Assembly: GCA_028716245.1 (NCBI GenBank)
Contig: JAQUQW010000003.1
Location: forward strand, 84,638 to 148,637
DNA length: 64,000 nucleotides
Source: Candidatus Omnitrophota bacterium
GTDB lineage: Bacteria; Omnitrophota; Gorgyraeia; Gygaellales; Profunditerraquicolaceae
Reading direction: 5' to 3'
A program made the position numbers and the translations under genes. The notes beneath the pieces were generated by a model that did not search any database, was not told where the DNA came from, and worked only from the letters and a program-made list of their open reading frames with translations. This document shows, piece by piece, positions 52,301 through 58,300 of this stretch (positions are counted from its first letter, which is position 1; each line of letters begins with the position of its first letter).

Positions 52301-55300
52301 CGTTTCCAAACCCAGCAGGCCAAAATTCTGCTTTAGAAATTCAGAAAATTTATTCCAGCCATTAGACGGAACTTTGTTCCAATCAAACAAATACTTTTTA
52401 TCTAATTCCAATGACACCCATTGACGGTATAAAGCCCTATCTTCTATCCGCTTCAAAGTATGATGCTTAAATAAATACCTGGCGTCCTTAAGATAATTTT
52501 TTAGATATTCCTGCAATACCTCTTCTTTCCGGATGTTCTTTTGCACAAGAAATTTTATCCAATCCCGATTACTGCCATAATTCTTGGATAATTTCCCATG
52601 CAAATCATCCAAATCTACTATACCGCTCTCCGTAAATTTAATAATAGTTTGATCTACATCATTAACCTCATTATTCAAAGGAAAATTCTCTAAAGAATGC
52701 ATATCAGCCAAAGCCAACGTAATGTTATATTCCCGGAGTATTTGTTCAAAACTTTTAATATACTCCCAGGGCTTCTCTCCCTTTGCCTCCGGCTTAAATC
52801 TGTCTTTTATCTCATTTAAAAAACTGACGATAACATCAGCTTCATTATCCGTCAAAGAGACGCCGATGTTGCTGTCAGGACTAACCCCAAACCGTATTAA
52901 ACAATCCCTGGTCTTTTCCCCGCCGTCTTTGTTGAAGCAATTTAAGCGAATAAGGTTAAAACAATCTTCCTGGAAGCTTTCCGCCTCTTTTTTCGTAGCG
53001 GACGACTCATAAAATTTAATCTGCAGGAAAAACCAGCTGATAATTTCTGATGGATATTTGAATTTATTACTAAGGATTTTGTTTATTTCGCCTTTAGGAA
53101 TGTTGAAATAGAACTGGCCGTTATCTAGGCGGCGGGCAAGGGGGTAAAAAAGGGCAGCGATATGGCGGATTCCCGGAGGGCCGGTTATTTTTCCTGATTT
53201 TTTCAGATACTCCAAGTTGACCCTATAAGCCAAATAACCCGCATATAGGAAACTCTTAACTATAAAAAGATTGGTAAACCTTGCGCTACCGGCAATAAAC
53301 TGGCCTGCGGGAGTAAAGTCGCCGCCGTCCTTTGCTTCGCCATCGCTTGGGATAAAAGCATCTCCTTTTTTATCTCTCAACTCAGCAATTACTCTTTTTA
53401 CTGCCGGAGTTCTTTTAAGAAAATTAAGCCTGTCTGCCTTTGACATAATTCTCAATAAAACTTCCAGATCATCAAAACCGGCTAATTTCATATAAAATAA
53501 ACCTATTTTATCTGCCCTTTTTTCTTTCCACCAGCTAACGTATATCGGAATCCAGAGAAGTTGTCCGATTACAAATAATGCTAAGCTTAAAGTTACACTC
53601 CATCCGAAGAATATGCCTACCATTGTTAAAGCTACAATTGTAATAATCAATGCGTAAAGCAATAAGACCTCTATCCCTAATAATCGGCTTTGCGTCCAAT
53701 GAGCAATTTCATGAGCTATAATAAAGGCTATTTCTTTATCCGATGCGGTCCTAAGATCTGGATGTAAAAATCTGGGTTTTCCTATATTCAGATGAACTTC
53801 GCCGACTGCACCTTTTTCTCCCGGTTTTAAAAAACTAGTATAAATATCGGTATCAAATATTATCGTCACAACGAAGTTGCGCCCGTGACAACGCTTTGCA
53901 GCATCTACAATAATTTCTTTTATCTTTTCTATTCGTTCTCGTAATCGTACTTCTTTAATCTCAGTTTCATCCCCCGCCCCGCCGTCGGATCCTGCTTTTA
54001 TGGCTTTAATTTGTTCTTCGACTTTAGGCCTGATCTCAGCGGGAAGCTGACTAAGTAATTCTGGACTCCAGGGATAAAGGGCAACCGCTTTAGCCCAAAA
54101 CTTAATCGCTTCTTCAATAGTAGAGAAAATATCTTGCTCATCCAAAAAGGAAATCAAATCTCTGCGCAGAGGTTTAACATTTTCTAAAAAAGTAGAGCGA
54201 CTTTGAGTTGCAAAGATTAACAGCCGCTTTAATTTTTCTTTTTCTTCTTGAGAAATATCCGCCTTTTCTATCTTCTCACCAATGATAGACACATTAAAAT
54301 AAACTAAGAAGCGGCTGCTAAGAAAACCCAACCTAAAATTAAAGTAGCCATTTTCAAAAAGCGCAATCATCAAATCTCTTAATAATCCGATTAATTCGGG
54401 GGTATTATCTTTTATAAGAGCAGCTTTCTGCCAAAAACTTTCAAAGCCTATGTTTTTAAACAGCTCAACAAATTCATCGGTTAAACCATTTATCTTTACA
54501 AGAGGATAACCCAAGCCTTCAAGCAGAATCTTTAATTCGCTAATTTTTATTGTGAGGAATTCCGGTGAGGGCTGTTTTATGCTTGGGGTTGGCGCGGCTG
54601 TCAATAAACCAGCTTCTTCTAATAACCCATTCTCGCGTAAATAATCTCCGAATCTTATAAGTAAAATGATGAACAACTCAACAACAGGCTTATTTAAATA
54701 TTCTTCATCCAGGAAAATACCTTTATCGGGTAGAAATACTCCTGAAAAAAATTCAGATGGCCCGGCGCGCACTCTTCCCGAGACTCTTAAGTACTCTATA
54801 AACATATTCACCGGCTGATCGCCAAACACCCACCTCGCGTTATCCCAAGCAACCCCTAAATTTTTCTCAAGTTCAGCAAAATCAATTATCTTTAGATAAT
54901 TCCATTCTCTGTTAACCCTCTCTTTTTCCGCTTCCGTTTTAGATTCCCCGGCTCCGCCATCTTGAAGAATAGAATCATCTCTTGCCACAGAAGGGTATCT
55001 GGTTGTGCCACTGCCTGCACCCTTACCACCGTCGGTCTTAGGTTTTATATCATCTCTGTCTTCTTTTTTATCTTGCCGGCGTTGAAAGCTCGGGTCTCTG
55101 CTGGTTATTTCACCTGTTTTAAGATTTATATATAAACCTCCATGGGGTTCCCAGCTCGTTCCCACAAGAATATAACCCGGAGTACCGAAAAACAAAGCAA
55201 CAGGAAAATCTTCTTCGCTGTATTCAACAAATATTTTTTTACGCTTAAATGGAATCCTGCCAAGTAATTTATCTAACAATCCGCCGGGAGCTTCGATATA

Positions 55301-58300
55301 CACCCTTGGTTCCAATGTGAAATAAAAATAAAGCCATGCTCTAAACCACGGAAATATCTTTTTTTCTCCTTCAGAAAGTTGTAAAAGCTTGCTTAATTCT
55401 CCTGCTATCTTTTCTATCAAGGAGCCGTCCATCTCTTTATGGATATATTTTTGGGTGGATAATTTTATATCTTCGGATAATTCTAATCTCATAATTGCGC
55501 CGGTAACAAATTTTTCCCAATCCTCGACTAAAGAATAACCGTGCTTAGTTACAACCTCATTAATTTGGGGGATATTTTTAGTAAAGACGTTAAGATAACT
55601 TTTTATATCTTCAATCTCTCCCTGCATTAATTGATTTATCTCGATAACCCGAATTATTTTTTTAATACGCTCGCCTATCTCCCAAGATTCATGGTCTCCT
55701 TTCTGAAGAATAAGACTCATCTCTTCTAGCGTCTCTACAAACTGCTTTGCTGCGGAACCGCCGTCTTTGGGAATAGAACCATAACCTTTCCTACGATTTT
55801 CTTCCGTTAGCTGATATGCCGAACCTTTAACTTTATAAAAAAATCTTTTAATTTTGTGAGGGCTTTCTGCCCGCATTTTCTTTAATTCCAGCCTACGCGA
55901 ATTAAAATAATTCATTTCATCTTCTATCTGTTGTCTTGTTAAAGAAGATTTTTCTTGTTCAAACTGCGAAATTTCTATGAGACCCTCTACAGCTTGCTGA
56001 TAGACTATATCTTTTTCTATATCTAGGCGATATTGTATATCTTCGAGTTCTTCGCCTTTAAATATCCAATGCATTAAACCTGCGATAGAGGTTGGGGGGC
56101 CCATTATATATCTTGCTTGAGGAATAATATCTCGCATAGAATTAACAAGGTTTTTCTCCTTATCCTCGCCCTGGCCAGCTTCACAGGAATAAAAAACTAT
56201 TGCGCATCCGTATAAAAATTTATTCTGAATCTCTTTTAATCTATGCAAATTTTCTAAATTTATTTCTAATTCGGCATAAAGATCCCCTAATTGCTTTTTT
56301 ATTTCATCTACTAATTCATTCCCTGCTATAGGAATAGATCCATTTTTTACTTCAGTTTCTACTGTCTCTCTTATGAACTTATCCTTAAATCCTTCGATAA
56401 CTTCCGGTGTTAAGCCCAAATTAATAGTTTGCTCGTCACCGTCGCCGTGTCCTATGACAACTAATAAAGAAGCCGTCTGTTCTTTAGTGGCATCTTTGAC
56501 GCATTCGATTAATTTAGTAACAGTGTTAACCTCTTCATAAAATTTTATTTCATAATTATGGATTTCCAGGGTTGCAAATAAAAATTTATGAATCGGTGTA
56601 GATTTATTGCTTAATAAACTATCTGCTTTCGGGCCAATTATTATAGCTAATTTCTTCTTTAATTGCGCCCCGCCGCCGTCTTTCTGCTCTTTACTCTTCC
56701 CCTCATAAGGCTGTTCTTGGCTGTACTCTCTTGCCCTTGGTTGATATACAAACTCCAGCTCATAAGGTGAACGCTGTTCGATTCGCTTTCCTTTCATTTG
56801 GCTGAGTCTTTCATAGGCATTGGCTGAACCTTTCATCATCCTGATATGTAAGCCAGGAATTGATAATTTCTGCCCATATAAAGTGTGAAAGTTTCCTGCG
56901 CCCTTCGCAATATAAATACAGGCATTACGCCAAGCTTCGCAGAATTCTAGATAATCTTCCGCTTGGCTATCTTCATCTAGAGCGCCGCCATCCTGAAGAA
57001 CAGAGGCGCTCAACCGGCCCCGTTTCCCGATTGAGCGGGAAACAGTTTCCGCCTTTACAGAAGCGCCATTAATTACACTTACCATGTCGCTGCCTTTATT
57101 TTCCTGATTTAACCTTATTCTTAAATTCTCAAAAAATTCTTTTCCTTCTTTTTTTTCTTTAAATCTTCCGATATCGTCTTTAGAAAGCCAGTGATTCTCT
57201 AATGCCTGAAATTTAGGGAATATTTCGTTCGGATAAAACATAATTCTTTTATTGAGTTCTGCAATAACATATTCTTTTTCTACGTCATTGGAATCAGAAG
57301 ACAGGAACCTCACAATCAAGCCCAAATAGTACGAAGGCCTTTCTATAGTGCTAATCTTAATTATATCCGCATCAAAAAATGCTTTCTCCTCAACTTCTGC
57401 TGCTATCCCGCCGTCTTTGCCCCAATAATTCCACCCCGCCATATTTCTATCAAATTCTTCCCAATCAATTTTTTCTCCTCGGCTGATGCGCCTTCTTATT
57501 CTCTCGATATAGTCCCGCTTAGACTTAATGTCCTCCGTAGGCTCGCCCTCCTGCTCTCCTTCTATAAAACCCAGTCCTGATAATACATTGCTAATATGGT
57601 TTAGCTCTAATTCGATCAATTTATTAAAATCGCCTTCTGCTTCCCTGCCCTTATAATCTTGCCTCAATTCAGTTATGCGCTTTGAGACCTCATTTATTTT
57701 TCGGGTTAATTCTTCCATCTGGGTGTTATAGCGAAATACCCTTCTAGCGTCTTGGTGGCTATAATTATTCGGGCCTTCCTTGCTATCTTGCCGGAGTTGA
57801 AGGATTGAATCTTTAGTTATCTTACCTGTTTTAAGATTTATAGATAAACCTTGGGGAACATTTTTAACAAAGGCGCTAATATAGTTTCCTTCCTTTAGGA
57901 CGGAACTCGTCTTTTTTAACATCTCTACAAACTGCTTTTCTGCAGAACCGCCGTCCGGGATTAAATTGTTTTTTGTTACTTCTATATCAGGATAATTAAT
58001 CCTCGTTCTAATTTTATCCTGGACTTCCCGTACTGCCTTTCTTACCAGATCAATTCTATCTGACTTCTCATCAGGCAAAAAAACGGTAATTTTTCTGGCC
58101 ATAAACTTGGATAAATGATTTAAATATGGTTCGGATATCTCTAATTCCTGTCTCAATACTTTTCTTTCACGCGCAATCTCCGCATAAAGTAATCTTATAA
58201 ATTCAGGTATAGTGTTTGATTTCTTTTCTTTGCTTATTTTTATTTTGATTATCTGTAAAATCAAGGCCGTGTCCCGCTCCGGGCCAATCATGCCATCACT

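Follow-up and report, generated by a model that had tools for sequence, protein, structure and literature searches.

The stretch analysed here, 64,000 nucleotides (nt) from the genome of a Candidatus Omnitrophota bacterium (contig JAQUQW010000003.1, positions 84,638 to 148,637; hereafter the window), carries a giant open reading frame (ORF) on its minus strand, in which an earlier sequence-only reading had noticed two candidate peptidase modules and a recurrent Asp-Gly-Gly (DGG) tripeptide, and which it had proposed to be a self-processing polyprotein. The frame is open from position 46337 to the window end; it is listed as 46337..63943 (5,868 amino acids, aa; residues are numbered below as in this window ORF), and the further 57 nt upstream, which are open too, correspond to residues 1063-1081 of a 6,949-aa database protein. 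The last 5,868 residues of that protein, NCBI MDD5477848.1 (Candidatus Omnitrophota, annotated as 'protein kinase', from a 151.9-kb contig; hereafter P0125), are 100% identical to the window ORF, and the portion available to the earlier reader represents the C-terminal 85% of the whole.

46337..64000, minus strand: giant ORF, truncated where the window stops; contains the last 5,887 codons of MDD5477848.1

P0125 comprises about 24 protein-sized modules with DGG between them, among which are two proteases (M48 and clan CD), a kinase and a SecA-like ATPase, besides many modules of unknown function. Hydrophobic stretches occur in three modules of the window ORF, and the best explanation of this organization is a membrane-anchored, mostly cytoplasmic protein, in effect an operon written as a single reading frame.

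The count of DGG sites given by the sequence-only reading was exact: the window ORF contains 20 of them in frame, while 1.35 would be expected from its composition (Poisson P = 4.6e-17), and the full-length protein contains 23, against 1.6 expected. In the window ORF, 20 of the 33 GG dipeptides have an Asp in front, and 20 of the 31 DG dipeptides continue with Gly. The remaining 22 ORFs of the window (~14,000 aa) have no DGG at all, and in ordinary ORFs the tripeptide is rarer than expected (65 versus 114 in 544 ORFs, or 291,388 aa, from unrelated metagenome loci). The sites, all on the minus strand, are as follows.

63848..63856, minus strand: DGG site 1, aa 30
62903..62911, minus strand: DGG site 2, aa 345
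62303..62311, minus strand: DGG site 3, aa 545
61607..61615, minus strand: DGG site 4, aa 777
60866..60874, minus strand: DGG site 5, aa 1024
59906..59914, minus strand: DGG site 6, aa 1344
59555..59563, minus strand: DGG site 7, aa 1461
58625..58633, minus strand: DGG site 8, aa 1771
57947..57955, minus strand: DGG site 9, aa 1997
57407..57415, minus strand: DGG site 10, aa 2177
56984..56992, minus strand: DGG site 11, aa 2318; the extended linker motif ETVSRSIGKRGRLSASVLQ stands just before it
56672..56680, minus strand: DGG site 12, aa 2422; N-terminal edge of the clan-CD module
55757..55765, minus strand: DGG site 13, aa 2727; C-terminal edge of the clan-CD module, kept at the orthologous boundary of the related protein P0126
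55025..55033, minus strand: DGG site 14, aa 2971; not conserved in P0126
54953..54961, minus strand: DGG site 15, aa 2995; kept in P0126
53978..53986, minus strand: DGG site 16, aa 3320; N-terminal edge of the M48 module
53321..53329, minus strand: DGG site 17, aa 3539; C-terminal edge of the M48 module, kept in P0126
52919..52927, minus strand: DGG site 18, aa 3673; kept in P0126
52025..52033, minus strand: DGG site 19, aa 3971
48992..49000, minus strand: DGG site 20, aa 4982; N-terminal edge of the SecA-like module, kept in the related sequences P0005/P0160 and L001

Around the tripeptide itself positional preferences are slight (K, Q, L or N at -1; A, S, K or G at +1), some sites sharing a longer cross-genome motif, ..[KR]G[RQ]LSA[RS][IV]LQ-DGG, and the tails adjoining DGG are of low confidence or disordered in AlphaFold2 (AF2) models. 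None of the 20 sites falls inside a recognized domain (P = 0.008).

The same enrichment is found in other giant ORFs. P0126, a 3,920-aa protein of the Omnitrophota metagenome-assembled genome KR13_N1.mb.50, has 8 DGG versus 0.93 expected; P0160, a partial 1,658-aa Omnitrophota protein, has 5 versus 0.37; and L001/L002, a frame of more than 7,519 aa that is open across the fetched locus of an organism with 57% GC and whose SecA-like module is 40% identical to that of the window protein, has 12 versus 2.2. In L001, 13 Pfam envelopes cover 32.5% of the sequence and none of the 12 DGG lies inside any of them (P = 0.008), the median distance to a domain edge being 31.5 aa (P = 0.01). Its segments are as large and as complete as whole proteins, as exemplified by a PRK profile matched over positions 1-183 of 196 within a 228-aa segment, a GNAT domain within a 153-aa segment, and CheR; in P0160 the DxDxT motif of a HAD phosphatase starts 10 residues past a DGG. 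In all four proteins a DGG stands before the SecA-like module, and another comes after it unless the module is C-terminal. P0125 and P0126 have four modules in common, arranged in a different order, namely S9 (64% identity), S14 (74-88%), S18 (69%) and the M48 module (25%), all of them bounded by DGG in both proteins, and at four orthologous boundaries the DGG is invariant while the adjacent residues have diverged. A scan of GTDB genomes with the module S14 recovered only the contig of P0126, and a scan with the SecA alignment gave no matches. These observations support DGG as a real, strongly selected, module-delimiting signal that is common to other Omnitrophota giant ORFs.

The nucleotide sequence beneath DGG is also biased, which invites the explanation that GACGGCGG is a recombination junction for the shuffling of cassettes, or a signal in mRNA or translation, and that DGG is its mere translation. 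The preferred spelling is GAC-GGC-GG[C/G]: in the window GAC encodes the Asp at 15 of 20 sites (background 16%) and GGC the first Gly at 19 of 20 (background 27%), and in the P0126 gene (locus L081) the figures are 7/8 and 8/8. This strong bias and the shuffling of modules as DGG-bounded cassettes speak for a nucleic-acid signal. Much of the bias, however, is a general codon-pair effect, since GGC is also the first codon in 57% of the other GG dipeptides, and GAC encodes 53% of the Asp residues that stand before Gly; what is left after this control for context is moderate (P = 6e-5 for the first Gly, 0.02 for Asp) and does not amount to a strong nucleotide-level signal. The codon choice in the P0126 gene likewise exceeds what the context accounts for. 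Moreover, all sites are in one frame, the motif is absent from the plus strand, conservation at the nucleotide level ends at 8-9 nt, and L001, which is GC-rich, preserves DGG as amino acids with Gly codons that vary (GGA, GGG). Given the control for context and this codon variation, we take the signal to act at the level of protein, with an unexplained codon preference, and consider a nucleic-acid origin very unlikely. Two more specific variants were discarded: a relic of stop codon, Shine-Dalgarno sequence and ATG from a fused operon does not agree with Met following only 2 of 20 sites and with GGCGG being no Shine-Dalgarno sequence, and a Chi-like or restriction-type DNA word does not agree with all copies being in frame, all but two in one ORF and none on the other strand.

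The first of the two peptidase modules, S13, occupies the segment between DGG sites 12 and 13.

55757..56671, minus strand: module S13, aa 2425-2729, predicted clan-CD cysteine-peptidase fold, DUF4347/CHAT-like
56621..56623, minus strand: codon of Asp2441, invariant in the family, after strand 1; possible third catalytic or S1 residue
56447..56449, minus strand: codon of His2499 (GHG), predicted catalytic His
56183..56185, minus strand: codon of Cys2587 (YSCEAG), predicted catalytic Cys

Clan CD is defined by an alpha/beta/alpha sandwich common to the families C14, C13, C11, C25, C80, CHAT and DUF4347, and its hallmark is a His-Gly that follows a hydrophobic strand, and a small residue plus Cys that follow the next one; proteolysis in the clan is dominated by the P1 residue, and the caspases proper (C14) have a p20/p10 organization and a basic S1 pocket (Arg/Gln/Arg) for P1 Asp. 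In S13 the sequence-only reading had seen a caspase/CHAT-like dyad in the strings VVIGHGDGDE and FYSCEAGQGE, which do lie at 56432-56461 and 56165-56194. The His indeed precedes the Cys (LLVVIGH2499G, AIVFYSC2587EAG), each after a hydrophobic strand, and the predicted model not only has the clan-CD fold, but also matches the cysteine protease domains (CPDs) of MARTX and clostridial toxins. A ~45-aa helical insertion is placed between His and Cys, and a C-terminal helical extension ends in a low-confidence tail that runs into the next DGG.

A direct Pfam search with S13 gave nothing significant, in particular neither C14 nor CHAT, the best match being DUF4347 over the Cys region (E = 0.12-0.18, 12 bits versus a cut-off of 24.6), and a comparison with the sequences in the PDB gave no match. 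An exhaustive phmmer search found about 10 remote homologues (E = 3e-12 to 5e-4), among nine of which DUF4347 is matched in six (best E = 4.6e-9), CHAT in five, Peptidase_C14 in two and Peptidase_C80 in one. Because these matches come through homologues, the assignment of S13 to the neighbourhood of DUF4347 and CHAT is transitive. In an alignment of 19 sequences, made up of the phmmer homologues and ten more from a profile search, Ala9, Asp17, Gly74-His75-Gly76, Cys163, Gly166, Asn174 and Pro192 are invariant and Ser162 nearly so, and the window S13 retains every invariant residue. DUF4347 and CHAT are therefore its nearest families, the caspase/CHAT-like description of its predicted fold and catalytic residues is correct, and Asp2441 is probably part of the predicted active site together with His2499 and Cys2587. 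With respect to known members of these two families, S13, which scores below threshold for both, differs in its ~45-aa insertion between His and Cys and in having neither SAVED, nor TPR, nor a CRISPR context; examples of such members are the Pseudomonas type VI secretion effector Tce1 (DUF4347, PDB 9qpe) and, for CHAT, SAVED-CHAT and Craspase TPR-CHAT.

The second module, S17, lies between DGG sites 16 and 17.

53321..53977, minus strand: module S17, aa 3323-3541, M48-family zinc metallopeptidase, 219 aa
53699..53713, minus strand: HEIAH zinc-binding/catalytic motif, His3411, Glu3412, His3415
53528..53692, minus strand: 55-aa hydrophobic hairpin, aa 3418-3472, between HExxH and the third ligand
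53510..53524, minus strand: E-K-R-A-D with Glu3474 (third zinc ligand) and Asp3478; aligned to E-x-x-A-D of BepA

Peptidases of family M48 combine HExxH with a third-ligand Glu that is placed in E-x-x-A-D, 60-80 residues downstream. The HEIAH string, correctly located at 53699-53713, had been described as M48/M56-like and as followed by three transmembrane (TM) helices. The M48 part of this description holds, as isolated S17 matches PF01435 with 37.2 bits (gathering score 20.3, E = 3.5e-9) and still does so with 30.9 bits when searched within half of the protein; no M56 family was found by Pfam at E <= 10. The three helices have to be replaced by a 55-aa stretch that is modelled as a two-helix hairpin and stands before the third ligand, Glu3474. 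The ligands of HEIAH, Glu3474 and Asp3478 are invariant in a 7-sequence alignment and align to the ligands of BepA, and the predicted structure has the gluzincin/M48 fold. Thus, judged from sequence and models, both peptidase modules have the right predicted folds and predicted active sites that look intact. The profile searches, which the sequence-only reading had named as the check on its peptidases, identify S17 directly, but S13 only by way of its homologues.

What might these peptidases do in a protein so regularly punctuated? MARTX toxins have an internal clan-CD protease that cuts between their effector modules, and P0125, as known here from its sequence, likewise joins a clan-CD module with a conserved inter-module motif. 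We read DGG as a recognition or processing site because it is invariant in drifting linkers, across differing base compositions, and at the edges of cassettes; and we favour autoprocessing by S13 because of the MARTX precedent and of the match between the S13 model and the CPDs. Tentatively, then, and with about as much doubt as confidence or slightly more, we propose that P0125 is a MARTX-like autoprocessing polyprotein cut at DGG, with the clan-CD module S13 as the likeliest enzyme. The chain would be cut at DGG into separate polypeptides by S13 (Asp2441/His2499/Cys2587), which could act in cis or in trans on sister chains, while the M48 module would be either a second processing enzyme at the membrane or a released cargo. 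The cut could fall at D↓GG, which fits the Asp/Asn-specific enzymes of clan CD, or at DGG↓X, which fits processing of the double-glycine type (arrows mark the cut).

The likeness to MARTX (RtxA) and the large clostridial toxins, whose protease belongs to C80, has its limits: Pfam detects neither RTX or glycine-rich repeats nor type I secretion domains in the giant ORF, DGG takes the place of Leu↓Ala/Ser/Gly between the modules, S13 is nearer to DUF4347/CHAT than to C80, and activation by inositol hexakisphosphate (InsP6) is not expected in the bacterial cytoplasm. Several findings also weigh against autoprocessing. The alignment of the S13 family lacks an invariant Arg or Lys such as caspases use to bind P1 Asp, and members of the family also occur in ordinary-sized proteins without DGG. 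P0126 has the M48 module and, according to BLAST, no S13-like module, and Pfam detects no peptidase in the available 7,519 aa of L001, so that neither peptidase is demonstrably universal, both of these surveys being partial or incomplete. DGG is a common tight-turn motif, found in S13 homologues, for instance, immediately ahead of the Cys strand, and the residues flanking it exceed random positions in polarity by a small margin only (P = 0.02-0.05), which lends weak support to their being linkers. Finally, the module S12 corresponds to part of a DUF89 domain rather than to a whole protein; hence not every segment between DGG sites is a functional unit.

The distribution of S13, missing from both P0126 and the L001 fragment although both have DGG, could be explained if the polyprotein were cut at DGG by a protease encoded elsewhere, e.g. 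of type C39, the built-in clan-CD and M48 modules being cargo. C39 domains are known to cleave after Gly-Gly, and the double-glycine leaders they recognize have hydrophobic residues at -4, -7 and -12 before GG; no such hydrophobic periodicity is seen upstream of DGG. Pfam and NCBIfam searches found neither C39 nor S8 in the window ORF and the full protein, and no C39 or other additional peptidase elsewhere in the window. Nor was a third peptidase detected in the giant protein, by NCBIfam in the whole window ORF, or by Pfam in the N-terminal 1,081 aa beyond the window and in the family of the N-terminal domain of module S16; and a search for homologues of the modules S12-S18 in a word-indexed collection recovered a DUF89 fragment only. 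C39 domains have nevertheless been reported as recurrent in Omnitrophota giants (10.1101/2023.11.21.568195; a group of 24 proteins with PF03412 in 10.64898/2026.06.07.730766). On balance we regard an external protease as unlikely.

A different explanation dispenses with cleavage altogether: DGG would be a structural hinge or turn (an Asp-capped Gly-Gly) between independently folding modules of an intact, membrane-anchored megaprotein, and the peptidases would act elsewhere, on proteins of a prey or host, or in HtpX-like quality control of membrane proteins. The occurrence of the DGG turn inside domains of the S13 family agrees with this, and so does the match of S17 to BepA, given that HtpX and BepA are well-established M48 quality-control proteases; S17 differs from HtpX, BepA and Ste24 in being a minimal, 219-aa, DGG-bounded module inside a giant protein. 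In addition, multi-enzyme fusions encoded in the same window plainly work uncleaved. These are glycolytic enzymes, encoded by a run of large fusion genes directly downstream of the giant ORF:

40349-44188, minus strand: fusion of class-II fructose bisphosphate aldolase and GlpX fructose bisphosphatase, 1,279 aa
33454-40257, minus strand: pyruvate phosphate dikinase with long extensions, 2,267 aa
28952-33433, minus strand: fusion of TIM, GAPDH and PGK, 1,493 aa

Yet the same fusions serve as a natural control for fusion without punctuation, since all three ORFs lack DGG, which means that fusion by itself does not need it. A flexible linker does not as a rule depend on a single invariant tripeptide, the residues of the linkers drift while DGG is kept at orthologous boundaries, and the motif ..LSAR[IV]LQ-DGG, found across genomes at a subset of sites, resembles a recognition sequence. 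A purely structural role of DGG therefore appears to us rather unlikely, and we retain autoprocessing at DGG as the working interpretation of P0125. Its extension to the phylum, according to which the giant genes of Omnitrophota are true cellular polyproteins whose enzyme sets are released at universal DGG sites by an in-chain protease, with DGG cassettes as the shuffled unit, is possible but doubtful; it would give viral polyprotein expression an equivalent in bacteria.

Omnitrophota, like other ultra-small, host-dependent bacteria, are characterized by giant ORFs. The abundance of such ORFs in Omnitrophota has been documented (PMC10066038), and West-Roberts et al. (2023, bioRxiv 10.1101/2023.11.21.568195) described giants of this phylum with divergent SecA without scaffold/wing, many TM helices and C39/S8 peptidases, proposed that they are cleaved post-translationally, and stated that the cut sites are not known. 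A 2026 preprint (10.64898/2026.06.07.730766) classifies such giants and mentions neither cleavage nor a DGG motif; the string 'DGG' occurs in the text of neither work. P0125 belongs with these SecA giants by its origin from Omnitrophota, its divergent SecA_DEAD and PPXD domains without scaffold/wing, and its multiple TM helices, and it resembles the giants of West-Roberts et al. further in its multi-enzyme content, its peptidase domains and its position near glycolysis genes. It differs from them in size (6,949 aa, as compared with more than 30,000 aa) and in having clan-CD and M48 peptidases instead of C39/S8, together with a candidate cut-site motif.

Among viruses, polyproteins are cut at Gly-Gly↓X by ASFV pS273R, adenain, coronavirus PLpro (LXGG) and alphavirus nsP2. 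The likeness to the arrangement proposed for P0125 lies in a long product that is divided at a short recurring Gly-Gly motif by an in-chain protease; the viral enzymes, however, are papain-like or belong to clan CE, whereas no such module was found in P0125, which is encoded by a cellular, chromosomal gene among housekeeping genes.

Whether an Omnitrophota giant functions as a single megaprotein or is cut up is an explicitly open question, for which DGG offers the first concrete candidate cut sites, and an invariant boundary motif in at least four divergent giant ORFs makes cleavage simple to test. If cleavage does take place, polyprotein expression would be a cellular strategy and not solely a viral one, and a new substrate specificity would have to be added to clan CD or to M48.

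The remaining recognizable modules of the window ORF are the following.

46340..48991, minus strand: module S21, SecA-like ATPase (SecA_DEAD, PPXD, P-loop_SecA)
48149-48346, minus strand: hydrophobic insertion of S21, ~65 aa, ~3 helices, inside the first nucleotide-binding domain
46340-46435, minus strand: C-terminal TM helix of S21
59906..60865, minus strand: module S6, Bud32/RIO-like protein kinase, Pkinase match aa 1118-1278
56672..56983, minus strand: module S12, limited to the final ~80 aa of a DUF89/ARMT1 domain
55025..55756, minus strand: module S14, unknown function, by far the best-conserved module with P0126 (86-88% identity)

The SecA-like ATPase and the kinase-like module anticipated by the sequence-only reading are both borne out by these matches. 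S21 has no scaffold/wing domain (PF07516 is not matched), and its build is common to its two closest relatives, P0005 and P0006. S12, which is 56-67% identical to DUF89 proteins of Omnitrophota and has DGG on both sides, is thus a fragment of a damage-control phosphatase domain that was retained as a separate cassette. S14 has no detectable family; it is a paralogue of S10 (57407-57946, minus strand), both having SA[EA]KQFVE[MT]L right after DGG and G[LG]xINLKTGxIT.

At segment S15 (54953-55024, minus strand) two DGG lie only 24 residues apart (KGAGSGTTRYPSVARDDSILQDGG), the first of which has no equivalent in the orthologous P0126 linker; the segment resembles a duplicated linker rather than a module. 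At the start of S16 (~54600-54952, minus strand), the ~110 aa that directly follow DGG site 15 (aa 2995) represent an uncharacterized domain family without a Pfam match, whose members are found in other giant proteins (4,203 and 6,941 aa) as well as in small stand-alone ones. The consensus of this family is D[PS]ARR[LF]PG...GR.RAGPS...KG.F.NE...HEFGAYLGLP; its RRLPG aligns with ILQDGG of the window copy, which has IRFGDY (in IRFGDYL, 54638-54658) in place of the HEFGAY of the homologues.

All large ORFs of the window are on the minus strand, and the neighbours of the giant ORF are chromosomal housekeeping genes, coding for MnmG, ribonucleotide reductase, a sugar ABC transporter and a ROK kinase. 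The ORF that adjoins the giant one (44193-45788, minus strand, 531 aa) gave a sub-threshold match only, and the one that comes after the glycolytic fusions (23653-28929, minus strand, 1,758 aa) gave zero Pfam matches. In the P0126 locus, the gene downstream (L081 11828-13138, plus strand) encodes a 436-aa product with a faint Tricorn_N and a weak PD40 match, which could be the beta-propeller of a Tricorn-like protease. As for the segment S20 of the window ORF, Pfam did not confirm the 'HEAT module' placed there by the earlier reader; downstream of its ~50-aa helical repeats, at 49520-49552 (minus strand), is the string FGSDIDGLVIV, which, while not detected by Pfam, resembles the G-S-x-D-x-D motif of a minimal Pol-beta-type nucleotidyltransferase.

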